Assembly (NCBI GenBank): GCA_964483505.1
Contig: CAZAAQ010000001.1
Coordinates: 3,821-52,653 of the forward strand
Length of the DNA stretch: 48,833 nt
From: an uncultured Candidatus Saccharibacteria bacterium
GTDB lineage: Bacteria > Patescibacteriota > Saccharimonadia > Saccharimonadales > Saccharimonadaceae
Direction: 5' to 3'
Below, piece after piece: positions 1-21,757 of the stretch; position 1 is the stretch's first letter; each line of letters starts with the position of its first letter. The notes beneath the pieces are model-generated. The model saw only the letters and a list, made by a program, of their open reading frames with translations, was not told where the DNA came from and ran no database searches. The translations under genes and the position numbers were made by a program.

Positions 1-25
1 AATCCACCCGAATCTCTCTAATCGA

Positions 26-34
26 TGTTATAAT
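26..34 (+). promoter_or_regulatory. extended -10 box TGTTATAAT, 8 nt upstream of murD ATG
   Basis: TGnTATAAT match read directly. No SD between the box and the ATG at 43. Confidence 0.45.
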
Positions 35-42
35 TTTAATCA

Positions 43-1341: not shown

Positions 1342-1403
1342 AGAATCTTTCGCCGAAACTTAAAAAGTATGCCAAAATAAAAGCAAAAGGAGAATTCATA
1401 AAA

Positions 1404-1901
1404 ATGGATTATAGTTACAGTTACTCAACACCAACCGCAACAAGTGATGGGGCTATAGCAGTATTTACGGGAATGTTTGCCGCTTATTGGCTTGTCATGG
1501 TTGCTTTTGCAGTTCTTGCAATCATTGCTAACTGGAAAATCTTCACAAAGGCTGGTAGGGAAGGCTGGAAATCGATTATCCCAATTTACAATATGTGGGT
1601 ATTGTTCGAAATCGCTGGTATGGAAGGAGCACTGTCTCTCTTATTGTTTGTGCCAATCGCCAATCTTGTTGTAACAATTATGGCGTATCTTAAATTAGCC
1701 AAAGCATTTGGCAAGAGCGACGGTTTTGGGATTGGATTAATTTTGCTCAGTCCAATCTTTATGATTATTCTAGCTTTCGATAAATCTGAATATCTATTAG
1801 ACAAACCAGAAGGCGCAACCGCGTCAGCCCAACCAGCGGCTCCAACCGCTCCAGCTGCCCAACCAAAGCCAGAAGACCCATGGGTCAACGGCCAGAACTA
1901 A
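1404..1901 (+). CDS. small multi-pass membrane protein, DUF5684-like
   Basis: 165 aa. The core WKIFTKAGREGWKSIIPIYNMWVLFEIAG followed by hydrophobic helices resembles the DUF5684 family. Pro/Ala-rich tail. SD AAGGAG lies upstream. Confidence 0.6.
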   Translation: MDYSYSYSTPTATSDGAIAVFTGMFAAYWLVMVAFAVLAIIANWKIFTKAGREGWKSIIPIYNMWVLFEIAGMEGALSLLLFVPIANLVVTIMAYLKLAKAFGKSDGFGIGLILLSPIFMIILAFDKSEYLLDKPEGATASAQPAAPTAPAAQPKPEDPWVNGQN

Positions 1902-1921
1902 ATCAAAAATTAATCGCTATA

Positions 1922-1956
1922 AAAAATCTCCCTACATCAATCGGGGAGATTTTTGA
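1922..1956 (+). terminator. intrinsic terminator after the DUF5684-like gene
   Basis: Hairpin AAAATCTCCC / GGGAGATTTT with a 10-11 nt loop, followed by a T-run. Confidence 0.7.
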
Positions 1957-1970
1957 TTCAGACGTTAAAC

Positions 1971-1979
1971 TGATATAAT
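1971..1979 (+). promoter_or_regulatory. extended -10 box TGATATAAT, 7 nt upstream of uvrB GTG
   Basis: Read directly. No SD in the spacer AAAAACC. Confidence 0.45.
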
Positions 1980-1986
1980 AAAAACC

Positions 1987-3957
1987 GTGAATTTCAAGTT
2001 ACATAGTAAATATCAGCCAACTGGCGACCAACCTCAGGCCATCGAAACCCTAATGAATGGGCTGAATCATGGTCAACGTGCGCAGACTTTGCTCGGCGTC
2101 ACTGGTTCCGGCAAAACTTTCACGATGGCAAACATTATTGAAAAATATAATAAACCGACCCTAGTTTTGGCACACAACAAAACGCTCGCCGCTCAGCTAT
2201 ATTCTGAATTCCGTGATTTCTTTCCGGAAAACGAAGTCCATTATTTTGTTTCTTACTTCGATTACTACCAACCAGAAGCTTACATCGCTAGCACCGACAC
2301 CTACATTGAAAAGGATAGCGCCATCAATGAGGAAATTGATCGCTTACGCCACGCTGCTACGGAAGCACTGCTAACCCGTAAAGACACCATCATTGTCGCC
2401 TCCGTTTCTTGTATCTACGGCATTGGCTCGCCGTCCAACTATAAGGCCATGGCAATTCGGCTAGCCAAGGGTGAGCAGCGCGATACTTCGCAATTTATTC
2501 GATTACTAAATGAAATCCAGTATCATCGCAACGACATCGCGTTTGAACGGGGCAACTTTCGTGTACGCGGCGATACAATTGACGTGTTTCCAGCCTCCGG
2601 CGATCGCGCCTATCGACTAGAATTTGGTTTTGGCATACTAGAGAATATCAAGGTTATTGACCCACTAACTGCTGAAGTTCTGGCTGAACCCACCGAAATT
2701 GGAATCTTTCCAAATACTCACTATGCTACGCCGAAAGATTCGCTTGAACTCGCTATCCGTAAAATCCGCGCCGAATACGAAGAACGTGTCAAATATTTTG
2801 ACCAAGAACATAAATATCTTGAAGCTCAACGTTTATCCCAACGCATCAAATATGACCTCGAGATGCTAGAGCAAACCGGCTTCGTAAAAGGTATTGAAAA
2901 CTACTCCCGCCACCTTGATGGTCGCGCCCAAGGGCAACCGCCAGCCACTTTACTAGATTATTTCCCAGAAGAATTTTTGATGATGATTGACGAATCGCAT
3001 ATGACCTTACCGCAAGTCCGCGGTATGTATAACGGCGACCGCGCACGCAAAGAAACTCTCGTCGAATATGGCTTCCGTTTGCCCAGCGCTCTGGATAACC
3101 GCCCGCTCACTTTCGAAGAATTTGATCGCCACATTCATCAAGTCATTTATACTTCTGCCACGCCTGGCGAGTATGAACTTGGGCATAGCCCACGTCCAGC
3201 CGAGCAAGTCATTCGCCCAACTGGTCTATTAGACCCAGAAATCAGCGTGCGCCCAAGCGAAAATCAAATTGATGACTTAGTCGAAGAGATTGACCAGTGC
3301 ATCAGCAAGGGACAACGCGTGCTAGTTACCACTCTAACTAAGCGGATGGCCGAAGATTTATCTGAGCATCTTGTTGAACTCGGTATCAAAACCGCCTACA
3401 TTCACAGCGACATTGATACGCTCGAACGTGGCGATATTTTACATGATTTAAGGGCTGGCACTTATGACGTGCTGGTCGGTATTAACTTATTACGCGAAGG
3501 CCTAGATTTGCCAGAAGTCGCACTGGTTGCCATTCTCGACGCCGACAAAGAAGGCTTTTTGCGCAGTGAGTCGGCCTTAATTCAAACGATTGGTCGCGCC
3601 GCCCGCCACGTTGAAGGCCATGTAATTATGTATGCCGACAACATGACCGGCAGCATGGAACGCGCAATTTCCGAAACCTACCGCCGCCGAGAAATTCAAC
3701 AAAAATACAACGAAGAGCATCACATCACGCCACAAAGCGTCTCCAAAGAGCTTTCCGAAGGTTTGCGTGCCATCATCCCAGAAAAAGAGAAGAGCAATAA
3801 ACTTAATCTCAAGAAAATTCCGCGCGAAGAATTACCAACTATTATCAAAGAACTGAGCTCTCAGATGCAACTTGCTGCCGCGAACTTGGAATTTGAACGT
3901 GCCGCCGAGCTGCGTGACCAAATCGAAGATATCAAAACCGCACTAGAGCACAAATAG
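1987..3957 (+). CDS. uvrB: excinuclease ABC subunit B
   Basis: 656 aa with Walker [14 protein letters not shown] box, helicase C motifs and C-terminal UVR domain ([13 protein letters not shown]). GTG start. Confidence 0.95.
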
Positions 3958-3987
3958 CCAGCGCGAACATTTCTTTAAAACTGTCTT

Positions 3988-4809
3988 CTATTTTGCTTGA
4001 TGTACATTAATTTGTGGAAACGGTATCGAAATATGAGCACGCTCAAACTCGGCTTTGATCTCTTTACGCAAAGCCCGCTCCACGTCATTATGCTTGTTTG
4101 GCTTACACAGCATACGCACACGCCAAACTACGGCGGAATCCGCAAAATCTTCAATGCCAAGAACCTGCAGCTCGCCTGTTGCGCCCGGTACCACGCCAGT
4201 CACTTTTTGGCCAGCTTGACGGAGCGCATATTCGACTTCCTCGGACTTAGCGTCATATGGCGCGTTCACATCAACTTGTGCCAAAAAATCACCATCCGTA
4301 AAATTAGTCACCTGCGTAATGCCGCGGTTTGCAATCCATTTAATCTGTCCGCGATAGTTCCGGATCGTTGTGGTTTTTAGACCAAGGCCAATCACTTCGC
4401 CCTCAAAGCCATCAATTTCAACCACGTCGCCCACATCATATTCACCTTCCGTGATAATCGAAACACCAGCAATAATATCCGTTGCAAAATCTTTTAGCGC
4501 TAAACCAGCTAACAAAGTAAAAATGCCTAGACCGGCCAGCATCGACGTAACATTTACGCCAAATACCCCTAACACCGCTAGCAATGCAATAAACAATACA
4601 ATATATTTTTCAACGTTGACAATCATACCTTGCATTGTGGCAACGCGCTGGCGTTTTTGCGCACTACGCAAACGTTTGCGCGATTTGCCCATAATTCGCT
4701 TCGTAATATTTTTGATAATCACATAAATGACCACCGCCACCAATATAATCACGACCGGATAGATAATCTTTGTCCAATCAATCGTTTCAAATTTTAATTC
4801 TACTGACAT
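3988..4809 (-). CDS. MscS-family mechanosensitive channel
   Basis: 273 aa with N-terminal TM helices, then GDVVEIDGFEGEVIGLGLKTTTIRNYRGQ, typical of the MscS beta domain. SD GTGAGG lies upstream. Confidence 0.75.
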   Translation of the reverse strand: MSVELKFETIDWTKIIYPVVIILVAVVIYVIIKNITKRIMGKSRKRLRSAQKRQRVATMQGMIVNVEKYIVLFIALLAVLGVFGVNVTSMLAGLGIFTLLAGLALKDFATDIIAGVSIITEGEYDVGDVVEIDGFEGEVIGLGLKTTTIRNYRGQIKWIANRGITQVTNFTDGDFLAQVDVNAPYDAKSEEVEYALRQAGQKVTGVVPGATGELQVLGIEDFADSAVVWRVRMLCKPNKHNDVERALRKEIKAEFERAHISIPFPQINVHQAK

Positions 4810-4876
4810 TCTTGCCTCACTTTTATTGGTTTAAATATACCACAAGCCGACTTCAGTAGCGATTTATCCCTTACAA

Positions 4877-4885
4877 TGCTATAAT
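4877..4885 (+). promoter_or_regulatory. extended -10 box TGCTATAAT, 10 nt upstream of gltX ATG
   Basis: Read directly. Very short or absent leader. Confidence 0.45.
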
Positions 4886-4895
4886 TAGCCTAATT

Positions 4896-6338
4896 ATGGC
4901 AGTTACACGTTTTGCGCCCTCACCGACGGGCTATATCCATATCGGCAATGTTCGTTCCGCGATTTACCCATATCTAATTGCGAAACAGAGCAAAGGCACT
5001 TTTATTTTACGCATCGAAGACACCGATCGCGCTCGCTATGTTGATGGTGCCACCAAACTAATCGAGGACACCTTGACTTGGCTTGGACTTGACTGGGATG
5101 AAGGCCCAGAAAAAGGTGGCGCTCACGGTCCATATTTTCAAACTGAACGCACTGCTATTTATCAAGCATGGGCAGAAAAATTAATCGCCGCTGGCCGTGC
5201 CTACGCCGACCCAACCGATGCCGAAACTATCAACCAATATCGCGCCGAAGCCAACGCCAACAAAGTGCCATTTTTGTATCGTAACTACCGGCCAAATCAG
5301 AATATCACTTGGCAACCTGGCATTCCGCTGCGCTTCAAGGCTCAACCAAAAAGTTATAATTACCACGATGCGGTATTTGGCGATTTGCACATGGGTCCAG
5401 AAACCCAAGATGACATCATTCTAATTAAAGCCGACGGCTTACCAACCTACAACTTTGCGCATATTGTTGATGATGCCACCATGGGCGTAACTCACATCTT
5501 GCGCGGACAAGAATATTTACCAAGCATGGGCAACTATTTAGCCCTCTACGAAGCGCTCAATCTTGAACGCCCAATTTTCGTGCATTTACCGCACATCTTA
5601 GCACCAACTGGCAACAAAAAACTCGGCAAACGTGATGGCGCCAAATCAGCAGCTGATTATCGTACAGACGGCATTTTACCAGAAGCCATGCTGAATTTTC
5701 TTGCCTGCTTAGGCTGGAACGATGGCACTGAACAAGAAATCTACACTAAATCAGAACTTATTGAAAAATTTAGTATTGATCGCATTCAACACGCCGGTGC
5801 TCGATTTGACGAGCAAAAATTACTTTGGCTCAACGGTCAATGGGTCCGTCGTTTATTTGCCGAAGATGCGCGCGCTTTATTCGCCCGCACGGCAGAGTTC
5901 TGGCCAGATAGTGCCCAAAACGCTTCTGAAGATCAAAAATTCCGCATCTTTAGTATTATTTACGACCGTCTAAAAACTCTTTCCGATATTAAAGATATGA
6001 CCAACTATTTCTTCGCTGACCCACAAGTTGATTTGGACATGTTGGCTAACAATAAAGCCCTAAAAAAGCTTTCCGAACAAGAAATGTGCGATTTACTACA
6101 TCAAAGCATCACTAAACTTGACGCTCTCGATGAATGGTCGCCCGAAATGTTGCAACGGTCTCTCAACGAATTATTGACCGAAACCGCACAAAAACCTGCC
6201 ACTTTGTTTGGCCTAATTCGTCTAAGCGTATCTTTTGCGCCGTTTAGCCCAGCTTTGCATGATACGCTCAGCGTCATTGGCAAAGATGCAACTATGGCAA
6301 GACTTAACGCTGTTGTTACTGCATTTAGCCGCGACTAA
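4896..6338 (+). CDS. gltX: glutamate--tRNA ligase
   Basis: 480 aa with class I motifs PSPTGYIHIGN (HIGH-type) and KLGKRDG (KMSKS-type). Confidence 0.92.
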   Translation: MAVTRFAPSPTGYIHIGNVRSAIYPYLIAKQSKGTFILRIEDTDRARYVDGATKLIEDTLTWLGLDWDEGPEKGGAHGPYFQTERTAIYQAWAEKLIAAGRAYADPTDAETINQYRAEANANKVPFLYRNYRPNQNITWQPGIPLRFKAQPKSYNYHDAVFGDLHMGPETQDDIILIKADGLPTYNFAHIVDDATMGVTHILRGQEYLPSMGNYLALYEALNLERPIFVHLPHILAPTGNKKLGKRDGAKSAADYRTDGILPEAMLNFLACLGWNDGTEQEIYTKSELIEKFSIDRIQHAGARFDEQKLLWLNGQWVRRLFAEDARALFARTAEFWPDSAQNASEDQKFRIFSIIYDRLKTLSDIKDMTNYFFADPQVDLDMLANNKALKKLSEQEMCDLLHQSITKLDALDEWSPEMLQRSLNELLTETAQKPATLFGLIRLSVSFAPFSPALHDTLSVIGKDATMARLNAVVTAFSRD

Positions 6339-6378
6339 TTAATCAAAATTCAGCCAAAATTATACTTTATTGCGCTTA

Positions 6379-6387
6379 TGCTATAAT
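6379..6387 (+). promoter_or_regulatory. extended -10 box TGCTATAAT, 6 nt upstream of ATG 6394
   Basis: Read directly. The box lies inside the upstream extension (from 6370) of the ORF-track call, which argues for the ATG at 6394 as the true start. Confidence 0.5.
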
Positions 6388-6393
6388 TATCTT

Positions 6394-7731
6394 ATGGATA
6401 AACGCAATAGGTCCGGATCCGGCGCGCATAAGATTCGCGTCCGCACCGAAGACGACGAAGACAACACTTTAGCAAAGTTATATTCCGAAAGCGAATTTAC
6501 GCACGACAATGCGGCACCCGACGATGAAAAAGCTGCCGAAGTCAACGCTGACCTTAGTGATTTTATTGACAACGCCGGCAAAAAACTTAAGGATGAAGAC
6601 GAGGTCCCAGCTAAAGCAGGCCGTCAAAAAGCCAAAAAACCAAAAGCAAAACATTCTAGCTCAACTTTCAAAAAAATCCTAAAAGTCGCCATTCCGCTAC
6701 TCATTATTGTTGCAGCCGGCACCGCAATTACGCTAGCATTCTTCCGCCCAGCCATTACTATTGGTGAATCTGACCAGGGCAACGCTACCACCACCGAAGC
6801 CGACAAAATTTATTATTCGCCACTCACGGGTAACGAGGTTAAAGATGCCGCGACCGTTACTTCTGCTGTCACTTGCGTCATGATTGAAAATAGCATCGAC
6901 GCTAGGCCACAATCTGGGCTAGATCAAGCTGGCGTTGTTTACGAAGCAATTGCCGAAGGCGGCATTACGCGGTTTATGGCGCTTTTTCAAGAAGCTAAAC
7001 CGCAGTACATCGGACCAGTTCGCAGTGTCCGCCTAACTTATGCCGAATTAGCTAAACCATACCAATGTTCAATCGCTCACGTCGGTGGTTCTGGCAATGC
7101 GCTCAATCTTATCCGCAACAGCTCCAACGGTTATCGTGATATTGATCAATATTTTAACGGCAGTTTCTATTGGCGCATTAGCAGCCGTCGCGCTCCGCAC
7201 AATGTCTACACTAGTTTCGAAAAGCTCGACCAGCTCAACTTCAACAAAGGCTATACTACCTCCAATTTCAAAGGATTCGCTCGCGTCAGTCCAGACGAAG
7301 CACCTGCCGCCAGTGAGCAAAACGCTACTACCATTAACATCACTATGTCTTCCAACTCGTATAATCCAGTTTTCAATTACGATGCCGTTTCTAACACCTA
7401 TAAACGTTCACACGTCTCCGGCGGCCCACATCTAGTGGTCGACGGTAGCGGCGCAAAAGTGCAATTAGCACCAACCGTAGTTATCGCAATGAAAGTGAAT
7501 CCAATTACTCGCACTTCAGAAACTCGCTTTAGTGATTACACCACTACCGGCTCTGGCGATGCTTTTGTCTTCCAAAATGGTTCTGTCACGGCAGCCACCT
7601 GGCAACGTGCTGACGTCAATTCTGAATTAAAATTCGTCGACAAAACTACCGGTAATGAAATCTTGTTAAATCGCGGCCAAACTTGGATTAGTCTTTACCC
7701 AAGTCGAGGTGGCGCTGTCACTTGGAAATAA
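6394..7731 (+). CDS. membrane-anchored DUF3048-like protein
   Basis: Basic/acidic disordered N-terminus, one TM helix (VAIPLLIIVAAGTAITLAFF), then a domain with YEAIAEGGITRFMALF resembling DUF3048. Confidence 0.6.
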   Translation: MDKRNRSGSGAHKIRVRTEDDEDNTLAKLYSESEFTHDNAAPDDEKAAEVNADLSDFIDNAGKKLKDEDEVPAKAGRQKAKKPKAKHSSSTFKKILKVAIPLLIIVAAGTAITLAFFRPAITIGESDQGNATTTEADKIYYSPLTGNEVKDAATVTSAVTCVMIENSIDARPQSGLDQAGVVYEAIAEGGITRFMALFQEAKPQYIGPVRSVRLTYAELAKPYQCSIAHVGGSGNALNLIRNSSNGYRDIDQYFNGSFYWRISSRRAPHNVYTSFEKLDQLNFNKGYTTSNFKGFARVSPDEAPAASEQNATTINITMSSNSYNPVFNYDAVSNTYKRSHVSGGPHLVVDGSGAKVQLAPTVVIAMKVNPITRTSETRFSDYTTTGSGDAFVFQNGSVTAATWQRADVNSELKFVDKTTGNEILLNRGQTWISLYPSRGGAVTWK

Positions 7732-7744
7732 CAAAGGAGTATAT

Positions 7745-8806
7745 ATGTACGGAGCTTACGATCCCAGTTACAACCCAGAAGTACTAAACAGTAAAGAGCG
7801 CCGGGAAGTTGCGCCGGATAGTCTTGAGGGCCAACGTGCTGCCGCATGGGATAATTTTGCTAATGAAATGGCGACCGAGCAGGGAGCTGAAGAAATTGCC
7901 ACCAGCACCAACGATGGCCTCATCGATGCCTACCAAGAAACTTCAGCCAAAACAGTAGAAGTCCCAGAGCAAAAGCTCAATCAAGGCATTGTCGGCCAAG
8001 AAGTCGTTCAAGAGCAGAACGCCGGTGCCGGCGCCGATCTAGAAGGTGCATATCAAAATCTTCGCGGTTCAATCTCTAACGCCGATTTGCAACAAGCCGT
8101 CACCAAAGAACAACCAGAAATTCAAAAAGTCGAAAACAAAATGGGGCAGCAAACCGCCTATACCGACGAAAGCGAAAATGTTAACAATTACGCGCAATCC
8201 GTTGAAGCTGACAACGACGTCCGCGCCGCATCGCTCAAGGCACTTGACGCCAAGGCCAAGGCCGAACATGCCACAGCCGCTATCAAGGCCGAAACCAATA
8301 ATTCCGAAAGTCTCGCCGAAGACGCCCTTGCTGCCGCCACATCTGCTCAAACCACTGCTGAAACCGCCGAGACTGCTATCGACCGACTCGCCGATACTGA
8401 TAAGGACGACATGGCCGCCAACCGTGAGCTCATCTCACAAGCTAAAGAAATGGCTGCCAATGCTAGGGCTCAAATCACCGCCGCTAAGGAAGATAGCCAG
8501 CCAATCGTTGCAGAGGGACAAACCGATTACGACACTGCCAATGACGACGATATGCCAGCTCCGGAAAATAATGCCACAACTAACTCAGACGAAGAACAAC
8601 CAACTAGTGCCCAAAACCTATTTGAATTTAACAACCAATCAACTACTAGCCAAGAAACGAATTCAACTAATTCCGCCGAGTCTAGCGCCAATGATCAATC
8701 CGCGCTACTCAATCCAGAATTAACCAAAGTCGACAATGCCGAGCGGCGCAAGCTCAAAATTACACCAACCGAACAAGCTGATCTCACACCTGAAGATCTT
8801 AAATAG
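7745..8806 (+). CDS. acidic Ala/Glu/Thr-rich low-complexity protein, function unknown
   Basis: ATG at 7745 preceded by AAAGGAG. 353 aa with no recognisable domain. Confidence 0.5.
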   Translation: MYGAYDPSYNPEVLNSKERREVAPDSLEGQRAAAWDNFANEMATEQGAEEIATSTNDGLIDAYQETSAKTVEVPEQKLNQGIVGQEVVQEQNAGAGADLEGAYQNLRGSISNADLQQAVTKEQPEIQKVENKMGQQTAYTDESENVNNYAQSVEADNDVRAASLKALDAKAKAEHATAAIKAETNNSESLAEDALAAATSAQTTAETAETAIDRLADTDKDDMAANRELISQAKEMAANARAQITAAKEDSQPIVAEGQTDYDTANDDDMPAPENNATTNSDEEQPTSAQNLFEFNNQSTTSQETNSTNSAESSANDQSALLNPELTKVDNAERRKLKITPTEQADLTPEDLK

Positions 8807-9590: not shown

Positions 9591-10901
9591 ATGAAATTAC
9601 CCGTTGTAGCAATCATTGGCCAAACAAATGCCGGCAAATCCAGCTTGTTTAACCGTATCATCCGTAAATCACAAGCCATCGTTGCACGCGAAGCGGGCAC
9701 CACACGTGATAATGTTGTCGCGAAAGTTGACAACCAATATTTACTTATCGATACCGCTGGTCTCAAAGACCCAAGTGATGAATTTGAAGCACATATTCAA
9801 GATCAAATTGACGACGCCGTTAGCTCCGCTGATTTAATTTTGCTTGCGCTTGATGGAACTAAATATCCTAACCATGACGACAAACTGATTGCCAAAAAAG
9901 CACTCAAAAGCGGCAAACCAGTTATCCTATTGCTCAACAAAAGCGATTTAGGCGAATCTTTGCCAGTTGAAGAGTTCTACAATCTTGGCGTCAAAAATCC
10001 CATCCGAGTTTCAGCTACTACTGGCACTAATATTAATGAGCTTCGGACCCAAATTATTGCCGGTCTGCGCGCCCAAGGTTTGCGGCCAATCGCCGACGAA
10101 GCAGGCGAACAGGATGATGACGTCTTACGCATTGCCTTAATCGGTCGACCAAACGTCGGGAAAAGCTCTTTATTCAATACCTTAGCCAAAAAGCAACAAG
10201 CCGTTGTAGCAGACTTATCTGGCACGACTAGAGACGTTAACCGCATCGAATTACGCTACAAAGGTCGCACTATCGAATTACTTGATACGGCTGGCCTACG
10301 CCGCCCAGGCAAACGGGAAGTGGGCATTGAAAAGTTCTCCGCAGTACGCAGTTTAGCCGCCATCCAAGAAGCCGACATTTGTTGCTTACTCGTTGATAGC
10401 ACCGAGCCACATTCAAAATTAGACCAAACTTTAGCTGGCCAAATTATCGAAGCCGGCAAAGGCATTATTATTGTTGTCACTAAAACCGATCTCGACCATG
10501 ATGATTCAGATGAAATCTTGAATAACCTCGAACGCGATTTTAATTTTATTCCGTATGCACCAGTCGTTCTGACTAGCAGCGAAACTGGCAAAAACGTCAC
10601 CAAAATCTTTGAGCTCGCTGAACAAATTGACCGCGCTCGCCACGCCGAATTGAAGACTTCCGACCTTAACAAAGTCTTAATGGCTGCCGTTGCCGCGCAC
10701 CCACCGGCTGGGCTCAAAAATACGCATCCAAAACTTCGTTACATGGTCCAAACTGATACCTGCCCACCATGGTTTGTGGTTTACGGCAGTAATCTCAGTC
10801 TTTTACACTGGAGCTACAAACGCTATCTTGAGGGATGCCTCCGCGATGCGTTTCCTTTTGAAGGTACGCCAATTTGTTTTAGCTTCCGCAACCGCGATTA
10901 A
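9591..10901 (+). CDS. der: ribosome-biogenesis GTPase Der (EngA)
   Basis: 436 aa with two tandem G domains (GQTNAGKSSLFN ... DTAG; GRPNVGKSSLFN ... DTAG) and a KH-like C-terminus. Confidence 0.92.
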   Translation: MKLPVVAIIGQTNAGKSSLFNRIIRKSQAIVAREAGTTRDNVVAKVDNQYLLIDTAGLKDPSDEFEAHIQDQIDDAVSSADLILLALDGTKYPNHDDKLIAKKALKSGKPVILLLNKSDLGESLPVEEFYNLGVKNPIRVSATTGTNINELRTQIIAGLRAQGLRPIADEAGEQDDDVLRIALIGRPNVGKSSLFNTLAKKQQAVVADLSGTTRDVNRIELRYKGRTIELLDTAGLRRPGKREVGIEKFSAVRSLAAIQEADICCLLVDSTEPHSKLDQTLAGQIIEAGKGIIIVVTKTDLDHDDSDEILNNLERDFNFIPYAPVVLTSSETGKNVTKIFELAEQIDRARHAELKTSDLNKVLMAAVAAHPPAGLKNTHPKLRYMVQTDTCPPWFVVYGSNLSLLHWSYKRYLEGCLRDAFPFEGTPICFSFRNRD

Positions 10902-13062: not shown

Positions 13063-13111
13063 TAAAATCATACTTTTATAACACATTTATTCGCGATAAC
13101 AATAAGCACTT

Positions 13112-13137
13112 TCACCCCTGTTTTATCTGTAAAACCT
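13112..13137 (+). repeat. TCACCCCTGT-tttatctg-TAAAACCT repeat, copy a
   Basis: Matches copy b on both flanks, with an internal 8-nt duplication. Confidence 0.6.
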
Positions 13138-13190
13138 TAAAAATACGCTGAAATATACAGTTGATTTTAAGAAAAAAAGTGAAAAAAGTG

Positions 13191-13219
13191 TTGACCAAAA
13201 GTCAAGTGTATGCTATAAT
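13191..13219 (+). promoter_or_regulatory. near-consensus sigma-70 promoter (TTGACC, 17-nt spacer, TGcTATAAT)
   Basis: -35 at 13191-13196, TG at 13211-13212, -10 at 13214-13219. This is the best promoter match in the window. Confidence 0.65.
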
Positions 13220-13225
13220 CCAACT

Positions 13226-13525
13226 AGTTTTGATCGATGAGGTCAAAAACCCGCACCTAAATAAATTATTCAAACTTTGCTAAATTTATTTTAGCAATTG
13301 TTGCGTGCTTTGGAAACTCTTTCGGCCTTCAAATTTCTTTTATACAATTTGAAGTGAAAAAGTATTACCTCCACTTAGAAAGTTGCTTCTAAAGCTAGCA
13401 ATCCCTTTAACCGGCGGACCCCGCGCTTTGTGAGGTGGGTCACGCTCCGGATCATCCGGTACCATGGAGGTGTGTTGAAGGGCCAAATAGCCCCAGGTGA
13501 TGCCCACCCTTACCTGGGGCTTTTT
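13226..13525 (+). ncRNA. candidate structured small RNA of about 300 nt, family unknown
   Basis: Bounded by the consensus promoter and a strong terminator, with no credible ORF. Hairpins at 13277-13297 and 13327-13354. Long-range pairing of 13366-13373 with 13465-13472. Confidence 0.45.
13489..13525 (+). terminator. intrinsic terminator of the candidate sRNA
   Basis: 10-bp stem AGCCCCAGGT / ACCTGGGGCT with a 13-nt loop, then TTTTT. Confidence 0.75.
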
Positions 13526-13574
13526 GATGGAAAATTTTTTCAATCTCTTATAACGTGCTAGACTGCAAGAAAGA

Positions 13575-17214: not shown

Positions 17215-20130
17215 ATGGATATCTTTCACTTTTTATTTACGCCTATTGTCTGGATTTCGATTGTCGTCATCTTAGTGATCTTAACAATCCGTAACTACAA
17301 GAAGCTTAATCGTCTCAGCGTGTTGAACGTCGATAGCGTGCTTTTGATGCTCGAAATCCCAAAAGCCAACGACAAGAAGGAACTGGCAGCCGAACAAATG
17401 TTTGCTTCTCTGCATGGTATTTTGCGTGACGCCAACGAGCTCAAAAACTCTGGCGGTGTACAAGAACACCTTTCTTTTGAGATTGCCTCCACTGGTAATC
17501 AAATTCGTTTCTTCGTCTGGGTGCCAAAAATCCTGCAATCATTCGTAGAAGGCCAAATCTATTCTCAATATCCAAGCGTACAAATCTATCGCATGAAAGA
17601 AGATTACGTCGACCGTCGTAGTAATTATCCCGTAGCATATAGTGCCGAAATCGCTTTGACTGATAATGAGGCGCTACCGATTAAAACCTTCGAATCCTTT
17701 GAAGTGGACCCACTCGCTGGCATCACTGGTACTCTAGCCAAGCTCAGTCCAGAAGGTGGCGAAGAATTATGGATTCAAATTTTGACTCGTCCAATTGCCG
17801 ATAGCTGGCATACTAAAACCGAACAATGGATTAGTAGCGTCAAAGCCGGCAAAGGTTTTAGCCTCTTTGGCAAAATTGACTTTGCTTGGTTCGCTCAGGT
17901 TATTGCAGCGCTTTGGCGACCACCAGAGGGCGGCACTGGCTCTACCTCAACCGTTGAACTCTCCGATCGCGATAAAACTCGAATCACCAAAGCCGAAGAA
18001 AAAGCAACTAAGCTTGGCTATGAAGTCAAAATTCGCATTGCCTATGTGGGGCAAAGCCAAATTAACGCTAAACTCAATATGCAAGCTCTCGTTGGAACCT
18101 TTAAACAATACAACTCCACTAACTTGAATGGCTTCAAAATGGTCGGCAGTAGTTTTGATCCAGCCGCATTGGACGCTTACAAAACTCGCCAATTCACCGA
18201 CCATGGTTTTATTCTCAATATTTCCGAGCTAGCTTCGGTCTATCATTTGCCCCACACGAACGTGGAAACGCCAAACATCGTTTGGGCCACTAATAAGACC
18301 GCTGAACCACCAGCCAAATTGCCAATGCTCACCGGCAACCCAAGCTACGACGAAAACATTTCCGCCTTTGGCCTCACGGACTTCCGCGGTATTAAACACC
18401 AGTTCGGCATGTTCCGCCGCGACCGTTCACGCCACGTTTATATCATTGGTCAAACTGGTTCTGGTAAATCTGGTTTGCTTGAGCTGTTCACTTTATCCGA
18501 TATCTATCACAATCAAGGTTATTGCATCATTGATCCGCACGGCGACTTAGCGATGGATAACCTCAAATTTATCCCAGAATCTCGCATTAAAGACGTCGTC
18601 TATTTCAATCCAGCCGACACTCAATACCCAATGGCATTTAACCCACTTGAAGTCTACGATCCTTCCCGCAAGCCGAATATTTCTTCTGAGGTCATCGGCG
18701 TGTTGAAACGGATGTTCGGCGATTCTTGGGGTCCACGTCTAGAGCATATCTTACGCTACACACTGTTGGCGCTATTGGATCGTCCAGAAACAACTCTGCT
18801 CGATATTTCGCGCATGCTGACCGATAAAGATTTTCGCAAAGAAACTTTGGACTATTGCCAAGACGTCACTGTCTTGCAATTCTGGAAACATGAATTCGGT
18901 AGCTGGAGCGAAAAGCAGGTCACAGAATCAGTTGCGCCAGTGCTCAACAAGGTGGGAGCCTTCACGGCTAACCCAATCATTCGCAACATTATTGGCCAAC
19001 CAAAATCTAGCTTTGATATCCGCAAGATTATGGATGAGGGCAAAATCTTTGTCGTTAACCTATCTAAAGGTCTCATCGGTGAGGATAACGCCGCTATTCT
19101 AGGCGCCTTCCTCGTTACTAAAGTCCAGCTAGCCGCCATGTCACGTTCGGATATCGTAAACGTCGAGGACCGTCGCCCATTCTATCTCTATGTTGATGAG
19201 TTCCAAAACTTTGCCACCGATTCCTTCGCAGTCATTCTATCTGAGGCTCGTAAATATGGCCTCAATCTTACGGTCGCCAACCAGTACACTTCACAGATGA
19301 CCGAAGCCGTTCGTGACGCCGTTTTTGGCAACGTCGGTACCACTATTTCCTTCCGCGTCTCCGCCGATGACGCCCCAGAACTAGCCAAACAATTTGAGCC
19401 AGTCTTTGAAGAGGGCGATCTGCTTAATCTTCACAACCGTCACTTTATCGTCTCAATGATTATTAACGGCGAAAAAGCCCCAGCCTTCTCCGCCACCACC
19501 CTCAGTATCCCAGACACTCCAAGTGATCTCACCGCTCAAATAATCCGCAATTCACGTCTACTTTACTCACGCCCACGCGAAGAAGTCGAAGCGGAAATTC
19601 GCGCCAACATTGAAGCCGCCGACAAATGGAAAAAAGAATTATCCGATTCTGGCCGCCAAGACCGCGACGGTGAAGATAGCGGCGACAGGGAAGAGCGCAA
19701 TTCACGCGCCATTCGCCCAACCTATCAGTTTGTCCCTACCCCACAAGCCGAATTCCGCAAACAAAAGATCTCCCCAGACCAAGCCGAGAACGGCACCAAG
19801 TCCAACGGCCTCAAAGATTTGAATAAGCTCTTTGGTGAAAAAATCAGTCAAGTCGAAACCGCCACCGCCGGGCAGGGCGATTCCCCAGCTCAACCACTCT
19901 TTGATAAGCATGCCGGCAACCCAAACATTGTCCACCCTGCTAATGACCGGCTATTCCAAGAAAATGATAGCCGCGCTGTACAAGCAGACGATCCGCAACG
20001 GCTTAATCGCCCGGCTATTTCATCCAACGGCGTCATCAATCTTGATTATGAGGCCACTCCAGCGCCTTCAGAACGCAATCGCAACAAGAACCGCAATCAT
20101 AACCGCAACCATAGCAAAAACCGCAACTAG
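17215..20130 (+). CDS. membrane-anchored P-loop ATPase of the VirD4/TraG/HerA-FtsK (type IV coupling protein-like) class
   Basis: 971 aa. N-terminal TM helix, a roughly 390-aa domain of unknown function, Walker A GQTGSGKSG (nt 18448-18474), Walker B LYVDEFQNF, and a roughly 190-aa disordered tail ending in NRNKNRNHNRNHSKNRN. Confidence 0.7.
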   Translation: MDIFHFLFTPIVWISIVVILVILTIRNYKKLNRLSVLNVDSVLLMLEIPKANDKKELAAEQMFASLHGILRDANELKNSGGVQEHLSFEIASTGNQIRFFVWVPKILQSFVEGQIYSQYPSVQIYRMKEDYVDRRSNYPVAYSAEIALTDNEALPIKTFESFEVDPLAGITGTLAKLSPEGGEELWIQILTRPIADSWHTKTEQWISSVKAGKGFSLFGKIDFAWFAQVIAALWRPPEGGTGSTSTVELSDRDKTRITKAEEKATKLGYEVKIRIAYVGQSQINAKLNMQALVGTFKQYNSTNLNGFKMVGSSFDPAALDAYKTRQFTDHGFILNISELASVYHLPHTNVETPNIVWATNKTAEPPAKLPMLTGNPSYDENISAFGLTDFRGIKHQFGMFRRDRSRHVYIIGQTGSGKSGLLELFTLSDIYHNQGYCIIDPHGDLAMDNLKFIPESRIKDVVYFNPADTQYPMAFNPLEVYDPSRKPNISSEVIGVLKRMFGDSWGPRLEHILRYTLLALLDRPETTLLDISRMLTDKDFRKETLDYCQDVTVLQFWKHEFGSWSEKQVTESVAPVLNKVGAFTANPIIRNIIGQPKSSFDIRKIMDEGKIFVVNLSKGLIGEDNAAILGAFLVTKVQLAAMSRSDIVNVEDRRPFYLYVDEFQNFATDSFAVILSEARKYGLNLTVANQYTSQMTEAVRDAVFGNVGTTISFRVSADDAPELAKQFEPVFEEGDLLNLHNRHFIVSMIINGEKAPAFSATTLSIPDTPSDLTAQIIRNSRLLYSRPREEVEAEIRANIEAADKWKKELSDSGRQDRDGEDSGDREERNSRAIRPTYQFVPTPQAEFRKQKISPDQAENGTKSNGLKDLNKLFGEKISQVETATAGQGDSPAQPLFDKHAGNPNIVHPANDRLFQENDSRAVQADDPQRLNRPAISSNGVINLDYEATPAPSERNRNKNRNHNRNHSKNRN

Positions 20131-20321
20131 CGCCTTTTACGCAGTCATTAGGCTATGTCCGAAAAAACGCTAGAAACCACTTTTGATTTTTAATCTCGTC
20201 AACTTGCGGTACCAATACTAAAAAATATCCAGACAAAAACCGAACATCAACCAGCAGGGAAGCCATAACTGTTTTTGTTATGTCATTTATGCCATTACAA
20301 AAATAATGCATACTTCCCCTT

Positions 20322-20338
20322 CTCTGTTCCACCCCTAT
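20322..20338. repeat. left arm of an inverted repeat, CTCTGTTCCACCCCTAT
   Basis: The reverse complement of 21072-21087 is CTCTGTTCTCCCCTAT, which is identical except for CA versus T. Confidence 0.6.
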
Positions 20339-20375
20339 AATTTTTTGCGCTCATTGCGTCAACCAGCGGACAAAC

Positions 20376-20392
20376 TCACCCCTGTAAAACCT
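20376..20392 (+). repeat. TCACCCCTGTAAAACCT repeat, copy b
   Basis: The exact 14-mer TCACCCCTGTAAAA also occurs at 20875-20888. A variant with an 8-nt internal duplication is at 13112-13137. Confidence 0.7.
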
Positions 20393-20874
20393 CAAATTAA
20401 CAGATAAGATGCCAGTACAGATAAAGCCAGCCATCATAGGTTTTAGACCGATATGCACAAAATCAAGTTCAGAAACAGCAACAGCCACAGTAGGGCAAAT
20501 ACAGAACCGCAACGCAAGGCTATTAGCAGCCAGCCGGCAGATTCTAAGCATAATCGAGACGAGTGTTTATGCGTCTTTTTGCCAAACATGAAATGTCGCA
20601 CAATATATCTTTTGCGACTTAATAACTGGTAAAGTCGGTTCAGCAACTATATATCCCACATGCTGATAGTCTCCAGCAGAACAGACCGACCCACTACAAA
20701 TCTACTAACAGTTTTATCATTATTAATGCATTAAACCCGCTGGATATTTACTTATTCGCAACGTTTTTTCAGGTAGAATCGCAGGCTCTACGACTACTAA
20801 GACATCCATCTAAGCCACTTTTTAAGCCTAAATTCATTTGGAAAATTTGACATTTTGACAACAGTTTTTCCACA

Positions 20875-20888
20875 TCACCCCTGTAAAA
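20875..20888 (+). repeat. TCACCCCTGTAAAA repeat, copy c
   Basis: Exact 14-mer match to 20376-20389. Confidence 0.7.
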
Positions 20889-20894
20889 ATATAT

Positions 20895-20903
20895 ATTATA
20901 ACA
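20895..20903 (-). promoter_or_regulatory. orphan extended -10 box TGTTATAAT on the - strand
   Basis: The reverse complement of ATTATAACA. It points into the ORF-poor gap, and the predicted transcript would begin with TTTTACAGGGGTGA. Confidence 0.4.
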
Positions 20904-20926
20904 TATTTACTTACTACATTGCAAGT

Positions 20927-20942
20927 ATTTCACGCGTGAAAT
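20927..20942. repeat. perfect 16-bp palindrome ATTTCACGCGTGAAAT
   Basis: Self-complementary, read directly. A second perfect 12-bp palindrome, TTAATGCATTAA, lies at 20723-20734. Confidence 0.8.
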
Positions 20943-20988
20943 TGTCCCTAATTCTAATTTTTGATTACCCTGTTCTTTGCTCTTCTCT

Positions 20989-21014
20989 ACCCCTGTTTAA
21001 CAGATAGAAAACCG
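20989..21014 (+). repeat. ACCCCTGTTTAACAGATAGAAAACCG composite repeat, copy d
   Basis: Shares CCCCTGT with copies a-c and TAACAGATA(G/C)AAAACCG with 31851-31867. Confidence 0.55.
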
Positions 21015-21071
21015 CGCTCAGCCCTATTCACTGATCATTCCTCGCCGACGCCTTCCGAACAAAAACCGAAC

Positions 21072-21087
21072 ATAGGGGAGAACAGAG
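21072..21087. repeat. right arm of the inverted repeat, ATAGGGGAGAACAGAG
   Basis: See 20322-20338. It abuts the AAAAACCGAACAT copy at 21061-21073. Confidence 0.6.
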
Positions 21088-21115
21088 CATAATTTTCCTC
21101 AAAAGCCCTCAAACC

Positions 21116-21757
21116 TTATTTGTAATACGCCCTACCCTCGACTCTCAAATCAACATAAGTACAACTAATATTTTTATCATTCAGATACTTAATCATATGT
21201 GACATATCCTCAGCCTGCACTGCACTACTGCGATCAATTGATAATTTATAATATTCATTGCGGCCCTGAATATAAACAACGATTTCTCGAGCCATATTAA
21301 GGGGCAGCACGACGTGATCTACGGTATAACCATAGGTCTTAGTATCCGCTTCTAGATGCGCTACGAATTCTTTCACTCGGGAGCTGACATTATCACCACT
21401 ATTTTCGTCGATAATCTTAACCGTTGGTGTAATAGCGGCAGCCTGGTCAGCGGCTTCCAATGCCTTACGTTCTTTCATCATATCCACCAAAAAACTTGCT
21501 ACTAATACCGCTAGAGTTGCGATGATTGCCAACACCACCAGTATCACGATGACGTTCTTTCGGTCTTTTTTCTTACGCGCCTCAATCCGTTCCAATTCAA
21601 CTTCACGGTTCTGACGACTCTCGCCCGCAATCGTGCGACCGATGCGAAAACTATCGTCATTCACATGATGGCGACGGCGATAAACCAACGCTTCATTTTC
21701 ATCGGGCTGGCTATTTTTTTGATGGCCAGCAGCTTTTTTACCCCGCCACCACTTCAT
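21116..21757 (-). CDS. single-pass membrane protein, function unknown (possible divisome accessory, FtsQ/DivIB-like position)
   Basis: 213 aa with a basic N-terminus, TM helix VIVILVVLAIIATLAVLVASFLV and a roughly 115-aa outer domain ending YVDLRVEGRAYYK. The start abuts the pgk stop. Confidence 0.45.
   Translation of the reverse strand: MKWWRGKKAAGHQKNSQPDENEALVYRRRHHVNDDSFRIGRTIAGESRQNREVELERIEARKKKDRKNVIVILVVLAIIATLAVLVASFLVDMMKERKALEAADQAAAITPTVKIIDENSGDNVSSRVKEFVAHLEADTKTYGYTVDHVVLPLNMAREIVVYIQGRNEYYKLSIDRSSAVQAEDMSHMIKYLNDKNISCTYVDLRVEGRAYYK

Follow-up and report, generated by a model that had tools for sequence, protein, structure and literature searches.

Organisation of the gap between the ATPase gene and the 213-aa gene

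In the window, the whole 48.8-kb stretch of DNA that was analysed and that belongs to a Saccharibacteria (TM7) chromosome, the longest intergenic stretch spans positions 20131-21115 (985 bp; the runners-up measure 492 and 475 bp). As its neighbours, this clade has a TrwB/VirD4-like ATPase gene and a gene for a 213-aa membrane protein, and in the window the gap runs from the stop codon of the former (+ strand) to the stop codon of the latter (- strand). The first-pass annotation had drawn attention to the length of the gap and to a series of motifs; the unusual length proved real and all motifs were found at their positions. No gene was called inside the gap in ten independent assemblies of the same species, and the assemblies end approximately 6.5 kb left of the window start. 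The features of the gap are as follows.

20131-20555, no strand: fast-evolving spacer from the ATPase stop codon to the hairpin, with degenerate copies of the right-half motifs
20153-20311, - strand: 52-aa open reading frame, rejected as a gene
20443-20589, - strand: 48-aa hydrophobic open reading frame, probably no gene
20556-20581, + strand: terminator-like hairpin, GAGACG-N10-CGTCT followed by TTTTT, part of a 66-nt element
20592-20623, + strand: putative dif-type core site, AATGTCGCACAAT ATATCT TTTGCGACTTAAT, with conserved arms and a variable centre (in an 11-6-11 reading, left arm 20593-20603, centre 20604-20609, right arm 20610-20620)
20624-20845, no strand: variable interior of the conserved unit, aligning only among the closest relatives
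20846-20852 and 20854-20860, + strand: TTTGACA boxes (tandem TTGACA at 20847 and 20855)
20866-20874, + strand: TTTTCCACA box, DnaA-box-like
20875-20889, - strand: CACCCCTGTAAAA box
20924-20895, - strand: promoter-like TTGCAA-18-TGtTATAAT, the best promoter-like match in the region
20927-20942, no strand: palindrome ATTTCACGCGTGAAAT of the GTGAAAT / ATTTCAC inverted-repeat family
20966 and 20987-21007, + strand: CCCTGT boxes ACCCTGTTC and CTACCCCTGTTTAACAGATAG, within 20966-21007
21055-21072, + strand: C box, CCGAACA-AAAA-CCGAACA, a 7-nt direct repeat with an 11-nt period
21055-21087, + strand: C box together with TAGGGGAGAACAGAG, which directly follows it

Comparison of the interval beside the ATPase gene in relatives showed that equivalent sequence is conserved and that the gap is not a product of decay, because the flanking genes never abut and lie at least 502 bp apart in 52 related species (502-3910 bp). 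A 66-nt element was found with nhmmer 3' of the ATPase gene in nearly all of 80 species loci, and a unit of 380-640 nt with conserved ends is kept in 56 of 71 species. Inert decay, which had been considered for the gap as a whole, describes its first ~425 bp only and not the conserved remainder. In one pair of strains, about 45 substitutions and three indels had accumulated in 20145-20530, compared to a single substitution in 20530-21097. This spacer is dispensable, since in compact relatives the ATPase stop codon lies only 41-130 nt from the palindrome at 20592-20623.

Several repeats link the spacer to the right half of the gap: a 20-nt direct repeat (20228-20247 and 21054-21073), a C-box-like copy with two mismatches at 20229-20246, exact copies of TCACCCCTGTAAAA at 20376 and 20875, and an inverted repeat (20322-20334 / 21075-21087) with 85% complementarity. 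The spacer also holds ACCCCTGT at 20378, a motif present four times in the window, three of them in the gap, against 0.57 occurrences expected for the whole window. CCGAACA, TTTTCCACA, and GTGAAAT are each approximately 10-fold or more over-represented in the gap. We rejected ACAGGGGTGA as a Shine-Dalgarno sequence: although real genes are preceded by similar AGGGGGTGA sites, none of its three copies in the gap is followed by a usable start codon or a conserved open reading frame.

Neither of the two small - strand reading frames put forward earlier behaved as a gene. Pfam searches of five open reading frames from the gap, these two included, gave no matches. The 52-aa frame was discarded: in strains L001 and L009 its start codon is missing and it is interrupted by an in-frame stop codon as well as a frameshift, and its frame is not conserved in relatives. 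The 48-aa frame stays open among strains and is probably not a gene either: outside the species it finds matches only where it overlaps a conserved DNA element, and this overlapping stretch matches relatives in several frames and on both strands. Likewise, six-frame comparison of the gap and of the units of 56 species gave matches only at the conserved DNA ends, in several frames.

The first-pass annotation had reported no clean terminator. However, a hairpin with a T-run is present at 20556-20581 (predicted stem energy -5.6 kcal/mol), was overlooked by the consensus scan, and is kept in relatives as the ATPase-proximal hairpin; it probably terminates transcription of the ATPase gene. Distant species have a second terminator-like hairpin on the opposite side of the palindrome.

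The right-hand motif cluster and candidate transcripts

To the right of the palindrome, the interior at 20624-20845 holds no conserved sequence, open reading frame, or predicted fold, and the motifs that follow it are concentrated in the conserved unit. Inside the units of 56 species, TTTTCCACA occurs 22 times, always on the + strand, compared to four times in the rest of those loci. TTTGACA reaches 1.26 copies per kb inside versus 0.17 outside, GTGAAAT 1.06 versus 0.18, and CCCTGT 2.99 versus 0.53, with 78 of 90 CCCTGT copies on the + strand. Whereas the GTGAAAT / ATTTCAC inverted repeat has a spacer of 0 to 20 nt depending on the species, the CCCTGT boxes keep a fixed spacing to the C box even in distant species. 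A further perfect palindrome lies at 20723-20734.

Across the 56 species the C box is essentially invariant and is present once, or twice at a distance of 37 nt. It always lies 380-640 nt to the right of the palindrome, also in species where its position is separated from the 213-aa gene by accessory genes. These accessory genes, inserted beside the unit in relatives, encode surface proteins, FemAB-like proteins, and others; none is an integrase, and in the 56 species no insertion falls between the palindrome and the C box. The C box is probably bound by a protein as a tandem dimer, and the right-hand motifs in general look like protein-binding sites. They may represent accessory sequences for recombination, a regulated promoter, or elements of replication control. 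A promoter reading of the palindrome and the TTGACA/TTTCCC cluster was rejected by eye, as no conserved -10 box lies at the right distance.

The gap had also been proposed to hold small RNA or micropeptide genes, which we consider unlikely. The candidate sRNA would be a - strand RNA of ~270-330 nt that starts at approximately 20888 and ends at hairpins near 20560-20620. In favour of such a transcript, TTGCAA-18-TGtTATAAT is the best promoter-like site and belongs to a block (20875-20924) conserved in 11 close relatives only, and hairpins able to end it exist; short leaderless genes are likewise conceivable, as many genes here start 6-10 nt after a -10 box. However, the -10 box, which lies upstream of the ACAGGGGTGA motif that the first-pass annotation would place at the 5' ends of transcripts, is only partly conserved (TATAAT is replaced by TGCAAT or TGTAAT in close relatives), its key second base is lost in L013-L015, and no start codon follows it at leaderless distance. 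With Rfam 15 at the gathering score, only five tRNAs were found in the window and none of them in the gap, where even a permissive E-value gave a best E of 0.36; 11 related loci searched at the gathering threshold and a tRNA and tmRNA scan of the gap returned nothing. Folding was no better than that of shuffled sequence (z-score 0.09 for the - strand stretch, -1.14 for the + strand), and no peptide or reading frame is conserved in 56 species.

The core palindrome and known Xer recombination sites

The 32-nt palindrome at 20592-20623, not singled out in the first-pass annotation, is the most conserved element of the gap. It is identical in nine of ten strains and follows the general form of an asymmetric palindrome, AATGTCGCACAAT-N6-TTTTRCGACATT. 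Conservation across 71 species reaches at least 90% in each of the two arms, compared to 50-70% in the centre, for which 17 different hexamers were found. The arms do not co-vary as an RNA stem would: a right-arm C is replaced by A or G without any change in its left-arm partner G. The palindrome is always intergenic and occurs once per species locus, in fixed orientation, and once in the window; in L089, two tandem copies lie beside an assembly gap.

The palindrome was found in at least 120 metagenome contigs with differing neighbours, in one stretch per contig among the matches listed, including contigs of 956 kb (Ga0209542_10000005), 775 kb (Ga0265297_10000016), and 609 kb (Ga0315912_10000014). 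Genes converge on the site: in the 120 metagenome loci listed, the + strand carries 85% of the coding bases in the 4 kb on its left, and the - strand 81% of those in the 4 kb on its right. Many lineages carry the palindrome without a C box.

The palindrome thus has the form of a dif site, with approximately 28-32 bp, two partly mirror-image arms, and a centre of about 6 bp that varies between species. A centre that is stable within species and variable between them is a hallmark of dif (Carnoy and Roten, PMC2731167). Like the sites of XerCD systems, it is an imperfect palindrome of ~30 nt with a 6-nt centre, intergenic and apparently single-copy. Its left arm and centre, CGCACAATGTATAT, are close to proteobacterial dif (E. 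coli GGTGCGCATAATGTATAT, with ACTGCGCACAATGTATAT listed in the same table; PMC2731167), and the inner left arm and centre, CGCAcAA-TGTATA, nearly match E. coli dif, which reads GGTGCGCATAA-TGTATA-TTATGTTAAAT (PMC2731167). In contrast, the right arm TTTTACGACAT differs from the well-conserved XerD arm TTATGTTAAAT, mirror images are found in the outer rather than the inner parts of the arms, and no skew switch was found at the site in the window's clade.

Xer-family genes adjoin the site in some lineages. A full-length recombinase gene lies 311-1136 nt from it in L165, L174 (on the 956-kb contig), and L214, with Phage_integrase matches of 1e-41 and NCBIfam XerC/XerD matches of 1e-67 to 1e-75 over the whole length, scoring under the NCBIfam equivalog cut-offs. 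The recombinases of L162 and L229 group with these by clustering. An arrangement with the recombinase gene beside the site is known from xerS-difSL of streptococci and xerH-difH of epsilon-proteobacteria (PMC2731167), and a distance of no more than ~1 kb in the three lineages resembles it. XerL-dif of Legionellales offers another parallel, as that dif site was recognised via a mobile element integrating at it (PMC9765430). Unlike in these systems, the neighbours of the site in the window's clade include no recombinase gene, and no xer gene was found within the 48.8-kb window. The sequence of the core site is unrelated to difSL, difH, and difLp.

Based on comparative sequence analysis, the palindrome is likely the dif (Xer) site of Saccharibacteria, and there is a good probability that the gap as a whole is the dif region of their chromosome. 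One or two host Xer-family tyrosine recombinases would bind the site at both of its conserved arms, cleave it, and carry out strand exchange over the 6-nt centre that varies between species, a reaction that would resolve chromosome dimers; we infer that the site also lies near the replication terminus. Integrase-less filamentous phages would borrow the same Xer reaction for their integration. The site itself would not be transcribed through, since the hairpin at 20556-20581 would end the ATPase transcript and shield it from read-through.

The motifs to the right of the core also recall the resolution sites of plasmids. As at cer (ColE1) and psi (pSC101), an Xer core would here be accompanied, on one side, by a few hundred bp of protein-binding DNA. 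At psi, the response regulator ArcA is employed, which recognises direct repeats, and the C box is a repeat of this kind. The unit could accordingly be read as a plasmid-style resolution or replication-control module that works independently of chromosomal position, with an Xer core and distant accessory sites (the CCGAACA repeats, CCCTGT boxes, and TTTTCCACA box). It might then even sit beside an origin or a fork barrier, in chromosomes whose two strands differ in composition to either side of it. Such a module would explain both a dif site away from the skew switch in many Saccharibacteria and phages that copy the core together with the C box. However, the accessory regions of cer and psi measure ~180 bp and directly adjoin the core, whereas the conserved motifs here lie 250-480 nt away, and lineages with the core only exist; we give this reading a small probability.

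Prophages, phages, and replication around the site

Prophages occupy the site in several relatives. In L031, two copies of the core site in direct orientation (8165 and 12679) enclose a 4.5-kb element. The element encodes Rep_OBD (7e-9), DUF2726, and small membrane proteins, as well as a Zot protein detected below Pfam's cut-off (7e-4) and by phrog_197 (3e-6), and no integrase was found in it. The left copy (8165) is a hybrid that pairs the chromosomal left arm with a foreign right arm; the right junction is truncated where the locus ends. This hybrid site recurs in L037, again ahead of similar genes. In L092, a G2P-type Rep gene (2e-14) stops 32 nt short of the site, beyond which comes a chromosomal-type unit with C box. 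L096 carries a Zot gene, and its copy of the site is at the end of the contig. An integrase-less element between two sites in direct orientation, one of them hybrid, is the configuration of an IMEX target. Indeed, CTXphi, VGJphi, and TLCphi at Vibrio dif are likewise small integrase-less Rep/Zot genomes between dif-like sites, one of the two flanking sites being a hybrid with a degenerate arm (PMC5357621). These observations support the recombination hub suggested in the first-pass annotation, with a dif-type core used, as XerCD dif is, by integrase-less filamentous phages and with an adjoining Xer-family gene in some lineages. In contrast to the known IMEX, the hosts belong to the phylum Patescibacteria and the site is also carried by tailed phages, including phi29-like ones. 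We know of no Xer-dependent integration of tailed phages.

The core site was found in approximately 15 distinct viral contigs with unrelated flanks and with no chromosomal neighbour genes beside it. Among 53 open reading frames near these copies, Phage_integrase is absent from the 25 most frequent of 37 Pfam families. Some of the contigs are lytic-type phi29-like phages, whose possession of the site integration explains poorly. The 17-mer of the C box occurs in phage contigs, too; in phi29-like contigs it stands near the contig end beside three TGTGGAAAA boxes, upstream of the terminal-protein and polymerase genes.

The presence of the site in phages and of prophages at the site would also be expected if the palindrome were only an attB for phage-encoded integrases and had no role in resolving host dimers, and an integrase could lie elsewhere in the larger phage contigs, which were covered in part. 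This reading is quite improbable. It does not account for integrated Rep/Zot/small-membrane-protein elements without an integrase or for the absence of Phage_integrase from the 25 most frequent Pfam families near the phage copies, and a chromosomal XerC/D-like gene beside the site in three or more lineages speaks against it. Moreover, a site without a role would not hold its arms at 90% or more in 71 species, and its recurrence beside different neighbours in at least 120 metagenome contigs would be unexpected.

Like other Patescibacteria, Saccharibacteria are very small bacteria with an epibiotic lifestyle for which genetic work is just becoming feasible, and their chromosome replication and segregation are poorly known. 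Literature searches found no paper naming a dif site together with Saccharibacteria, and nothing relevant for Saccharibacteria with dif, XerD, or Inoviridae. A dif-type site, once defined, would provide a terminus-region landmark for fragmented assemblies and a safe, conserved target for DNA insertion; it would also account for the hotspot of accessory genes and prophages and point to filamentous prophages of this phylum that depend on a host recombinase.

Analysis of coding-strand GC3 skew revealed no switch at the site in the window's species between -27 kb and +28 kb, with + strand genes at about -0.44 and - strand genes at about +0.23 on both sides. A terminus-type switch at the site was found in none of 56 related species, and a switch in the expected direction occurs only in L230 and, weakly, in L177. 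A terminus marked by a skew switch at the site itself was rejected. The positions of dif and of the switch need not coincide, as the distance between Legionella dif and the skew inflection ranges from 89 bp to 79 kb (PMC9765430). Two clades with the same gene order show opposite skew signs, which fits a terminus nearby on either side. The missing switch across the clade, together with the invariant co-travelling motif cluster, could signal an unusual mode of replication or resolution in these reduced genomes. An oriC was rejected for the unit, which has at most one to three TTTTCCACA boxes, in 20 of 56 species, no skew switch, and converging genes.

The skew data bear on a further reading, by which the unit is a replication control region instead of, or besides, a resolution site: an origin or polar fork barrier beside dif, which supposes that origin and terminus lie close together or that replication is one-way. 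In line with this, the two flanks of the unit share one skew sign in each of the 56 species, the DnaA-box-like TTTTCCACA is enriched more than 100-fold in the units, and the C box is iteron-like, with an 11-nt-period direct repeat in fixed orientation that recurs beside three TGTGGAAAA boxes in phi29-like phage contigs. Monotonic cumulative skew in some CPR genomes has been read as a close origin and terminus or as unidirectional replication, providing a precedent (PMC7143001). However, in a Saccharibacterium from soil the skew is of the ordinary bidirectional kind and the origin lies at dnaA-dnaN (PMC6031116). In addition, TTTTCCACA is found in just 20 of 56 units, usually once, and same-sign skew also occurs in palindrome-only lineages without a C box (L174 and L165). 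A polar origin would leave unexplained the opposite skew signs of two clades with the same unit orientation, and an origin at the unit would place the genes to its left head-on to replication, making this reading very unlikely.

Finally, the conserved arms and variable spacer would also suit a non-recombinase dimer that binds the palindrome as an operator or a parS-/Ter-like site copied by phages, and lytic-type phi29-like phages do carry it, much as phi29 itself carries host parS and Spo0A sites, but we hold this to be highly improbable, as it explains neither the direct copies around integrase-less Rep/Zot elements, with their hybrid left copy, nor the adjacent Xer-like gene, and the site lies between convergent gene ends rather than at a promoter.

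A conserved unit between the ATPase and the 213-aa gene

The window covers core chromosomal DNA of a Saccharibacterium (TM7), with housekeeping genes to the left (uvrB, gltX, der, pth, topA) and to the right of the gap (pgk, pyk, murG, mraY, a penicillin-binding protein gene, mraW). The closest relatives of the gap-adjacent ATPase (about 80% identity) are source-named Candidatus Saccharibacteria proteins, and the loci retrieved through it belong to Saccharibacteria and Nanosyncoccus genomes from gut and rumen. The 985-bp gap (20131–21115) proved to be real and is the longest intergenic stretch of the window. All repeats, palindromes, boxes and small ORFs listed for it in the first-pass annotation were recovered at the given positions, and the gap motifs are enriched well above chance, with three of the four window copies of ACCCCTGT falling in the gap compared with 0.57 expected window-wide.

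In order to assess conservation, we compared 10 assemblies of the same species and 80 species-level loci retrieved with an ATPase alignment. All 10 same-species assemblies carry a gap of about 985 bp with no gene called in it. The order ATPase (+), gap, 213-aa homologue (-) is retained in 52 of the 80 relatives, with stop-to-stop distances of 502–3910 bp and never less. Abutting flanking genes, which the first-pass annotation had considered a sign of inert decay, were thus not seen in these 52 relatives. The gap is conserved, not decayed.

In almost all of the 80 loci, an iterated nhmmer search revealed an element of about 66 nt 3' of the ATPase gene, composed of a hairpin with a T run and, 10–12 nt further on, a 32-nt palindrome. 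The features of the locus are:

Features of the gap and its flanking genes (window coordinates)
ATPase gene, ends at the left edge of the gap, + strand: 971 aa, membrane protein, DUF8128 and TrwB/VirD4-like domains
20556–20581: hairpin with T run, general form AGACG-N10-CGTCTTTT
20592–20623: 32-nt asymmetric palindrome, general form AATGTCG(C/T)ACAAT-N6-TTT(T)RCGACATT
21055–21072: C box, CCGAACA-AAAA-CCGAACA, essentially invariant
21116–21757, - strand: gene for the 213-aa membrane protein, stop codon at the right edge of the gap

The C box lies 380–640 nt right of the palindrome in 56 of 71 species, in one or two copies (37 nt apart). Extra genes in the gaps of relatives sit left of the palindrome or right of the C box but never in between, so that the two delimit a unit. 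The interior of this unit is variable, yet contains recurring motifs, namely CCCTGT/ACCCCTGT boxes, TTTGACA, TTTTCCACA and an inverted repeat (GTGAAAT...ATTTCAC, spacer 0–20 nt); more distant species also carry TTTCCC boxes whose distances to the C box are fixed. The unit does not include the first ~425 bp of the window gap, and in compact relatives the palindrome is only 41–130 nt from the ATPase stop. Between the same two strains of the window species, these ~425 bp differ by about 45 substitutions and 3 indels, compared to a single substitution in the unit.

The palindrome as a candidate Xer recombination site

Among 71 species, both arms of the palindrome are at least 90% conserved and the centre 50–70%, with 17 distinct central hexamers, while 9 of 10 strains of the window species share an identical 32-mer. 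A hexamer that varies between species but not within one, set between inverted repeats, is named as a hallmark of dif by Carnoy and Roten (PMC2731167). Read as 11-6-11, the consensus is ATGTCGCACAA-TATATA-TTTTACGACAT, which in its inner left arm and centre resembles proteobacterial dif (GGTGCGCATAA-TGTATA in E. coli, ACTGCGCACAA-TGTATA in a second entry of the same table; PMC2731167). In contrast, the right arm is unlike the XerD arm of dif.

In a metagenome scan, the site was present in at least 120 contigs, each with one stretch and three of them 956, 775 and 609 kb long. The ATPase gene, the 213-aa gene and the C box are missing from many of these contigs, and the site is therefore conserved outside the window's clade and across differing gene neighbourhoods. 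Genes converge on it almost everywhere: within 4 kb, 85% of coding bases on the left share one strand, and 81% of those on the right lie on the opposite one.

In one relative (L031), two directly oriented copies of the site enclose a 4.5-kb element. Its products are a replication protein (Rep_OBD), an assembly ATPase of the Zot-like type, a DUF2726 protein and small membrane proteins, with no integrase; the left copy of the site retains the chromosomal hairpin and left arm, and the right arm is foreign. The same type of hybrid site, followed by similar genes, is present in a second relative (L037). In contig L092, the end of a G2P-type Rep gene lies 32 nt ahead of the site and a chromosomal-type unit with C box follows, and in contig L096 a Zot gene is accompanied by a site at the contig end. 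IMEXs are integrase-less filamentous phages that have dif-like sites on both sides and exploit the host XerCD; the L031 element is likewise integrase-less, of the Rep/Zot type and flanked by two dif-like sites. For Legionella, too, a dif site was recognised from a mobile element that inserts there (PMC9765430).

The 32-nt site, with its own central hexamer, was also found in 20 IMG/VR contigs (about 15 distinct), which have unrelated flanks and none of the chromosomal neighbour genes. They encode phi29-like connector and capsid proteins, terminases, DnaB and lysins, and Phage_integrase was absent from the 25 most frequent of 37 Pfam families among 53 ORFs near the phage copies. The tailed phages may use the site for integration by the host recombinase or in another way. 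Six of these contigs (L093, L105, L095, L103, L106, L098) are from tailed phages, some of them phi29-like and ~16 kb in length, in which the palindrome is intergenic, with lysis genes on one side and packaging or structural genes on the other; no integrase was seen in the examined parts. A further site-bearing phage contig, L109, carries an intein (Intein_splicing, Hint_2) in its terminase large subunit gene (3485–5467).

A full-length gene for an Xer-family tyrosine recombinase is located 311–1136 nt from the site in contigs L165, L174 (956 kb) and L214. Its products match Phage_integrase (1e-41) and, over their whole length, NCBIfam XerC/XerD models (1e-67 to 1e-75), the latter below the equivalog cut-offs; by sequence clustering, L162 and L229 group with these three. 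The module layout is the same as for xerS-difSL and xerH-difH (PMC2731167). Conservation, prophage junctions, phage copies, breadth and context, and recombinase linkage therefore represent five lines of sequence evidence that point the same way, to the palindrome as a probable recombination site.

The relative L059 carries a rearranged site (10078–10140), in which the left arm and centre are followed by an inverted partial arm and, 32 nt on, by a reversed right arm. In L089, the hairpin and palindrome occur in two tandem copies 178 nt apart (6767 and 6945), beside a run of N. Both arrangements could be recombination products or assembly artefacts.

GC skew and the direction of replication

On both sides of the gap, GC3 skew is set only by gene strand (coding strand; about -0.44 for + and about +0.23 for - strand genes), and the pattern is unchanged 27 kb left of the gap. 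The whole window is therefore on one replication arm, which puts an uninterrupted run of 13 + strand housekeeping genes on the lagging strand, all of them left of the gap and including uvrB, gltX, der, pth and topA. The strand-wide GC3 skew is very strong throughout window 43–48704 and positions 1–7886 of the same-species assembly L149, at least 55 kb without a switch.

A terminus-type skew switch at the site was observed in none of 56 related species. Instead, the loci (L011–L090) fall into two clades with opposite skew signs, + strand C-rich (window-like) versus G-rich (the clade with two C boxes). Within each clade the sign is equal on both sides of the site, and gene order and site orientation are the same in both, which implies that the direction of replication through the conserved gene order has changed between them. 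Opposite signs at conserved synteny would be expected if a nearby terminus lay on different sides in the two clades. Outside the clade, contig L230 switches in the expected direction and L177 weakly so; other contigs are same-sign or have too little skew for a judgement. As dif in Legionella lies 89 bp to 79 kb from the skew inflection (PMC9765430), the lacking switch is not fatal to the dif reading, yet it is an unmet expectation. A soil Saccharibacterium shows ordinary bidirectional skew (PMC6031116), and the monotonic cumulative skew of some other CPR genomes has been taken to indicate either a short distance between origin and terminus or replication in one direction (PMC7143001).

Overall, the gap most likely comprises a Saccharibacteria dif-type site, which a terminator formed by the hairpin and T run would precede, together with a conserved motif cluster and a dispensable spacer. 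This kind of element is already known and does not represent a new class of system. It differs from known examples in its sequence, its noncanonical right arm and its setting in this clade, in the lack of a skew switch and in the phages by which it is used or copied, and it deserves follow-up.

The motif cluster, candidate transcripts and flanking genes

In the C box, 7 nt are directly repeated with a period of 11 nt, a geometry that would fit sites for tandem winged-helix dimers. Its 17-mer is also present in viral contigs, several of which resemble Saccharibacteria phages; in phi29-like contigs, it occurs no more than 150 bp from the contig end with three TGTGGAAAA boxes, ahead of a promoter-like site and of the genes for the terminal protein and polymerase. 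Four phi29-like IMG/VR contigs (L113, L130, L132, L148; terminal protein, B-family polymerase, packaging ATPase) have a CCGAACAAAAACCGAAC box near the contig end with two or three TGTGGAAAA boxes alongside; in L132 and L148 at most 150 bp separate the CCGAACAAAAACCGAAC box from the end, and a promoter-like site (TTGCAA-N17-TATACT) lies downstream of it. Enrichment of TTTTCCACA in the units exceeds 100-fold, yet only 20 of 56 contain it. The motif cluster may represent recombination accessory sequences, for which cer and psi are the model, a regulated promoter, or replication control elements. Since lineages with the core site alone exist, the cluster is not needed for keeping the core.

Small genes, as suggested in the first-pass annotation, and known RNA families found no support. 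The 52-aa ORF lacks its start codon and contains a stop and a frameshift in two strains. The 48-aa ORF is open in strains, but beyond the species its matches are confined to the overlap with the conserved element, in several frames and on both strands. When all open frames of the 56 units were compared with one another, similarity was limited to the two conserved ends, Rfam gave no match in the gap or in 11 related loci, and predicted folding energies were ordinary (z-scores 0.09 and -1.14). Variation in the palindrome is also unlike that of an RNA stem, as the right-arm C is replaced by A or G in many species while the partner G is constant.

Many window genes have a -10 box, often TG-extended, 6–10 nt before the start codon and no Shine-Dalgarno sequence (starts at 43, 1987, 4896, 9044, 9591, 12541, 17215, 22845, 30461, 35030, 39567 and 47193), and leaderless mRNAs thus seem common in this genome; other genes have AGGAGG- or AGGGGGTGA-type sites. 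The best promoter-like site of the region is on the - strand (20895–20924), in a block common to 11 close relatives, some of which lack the critical second base of the -10 box; at the leaderless spacing common in this genome, a start codon is absent. A transcript from this site is possible but unsupported.

The 213-aa protein had no match in a Pfam search. In contig L257, a 304-aa gene (3638–4552) directly after ftsW and murG takes its place beside the site; the product was not flagged as a homologue in the metagenome locus scan. Based on this position and the matching C-terminal motifs (...VRLADKVYYK versus ...RVEGRAYYK), the 213-aa protein may be a divergent FtsQ/DivIB-like division protein. 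In the ATPase, the C-terminal tail (19900–20130) consists of a low-complexity Asn/Arg-rich repeat (NRNKNRNHNRNHSKNRN). The underlying DNA is made up of AACCGCAA-like repeats, close to a 3-nt indel (19978–19980) that differs among strains. This repeat DNA is C-box-like and yields spurious in-gene C-box matches in relatives. The second-largest gap, between pth and topA (13063–13554, 492 bp), holds the sole ACCCCTGT outside the main gap, at 13114, and a good terminator-like hairpin ahead of topA. Three independent same-species assemblies (L149–L151) all stop ~6–6.6 kb left of the window start, just past uvrA, which suggests a repeat or strain-variable region there.
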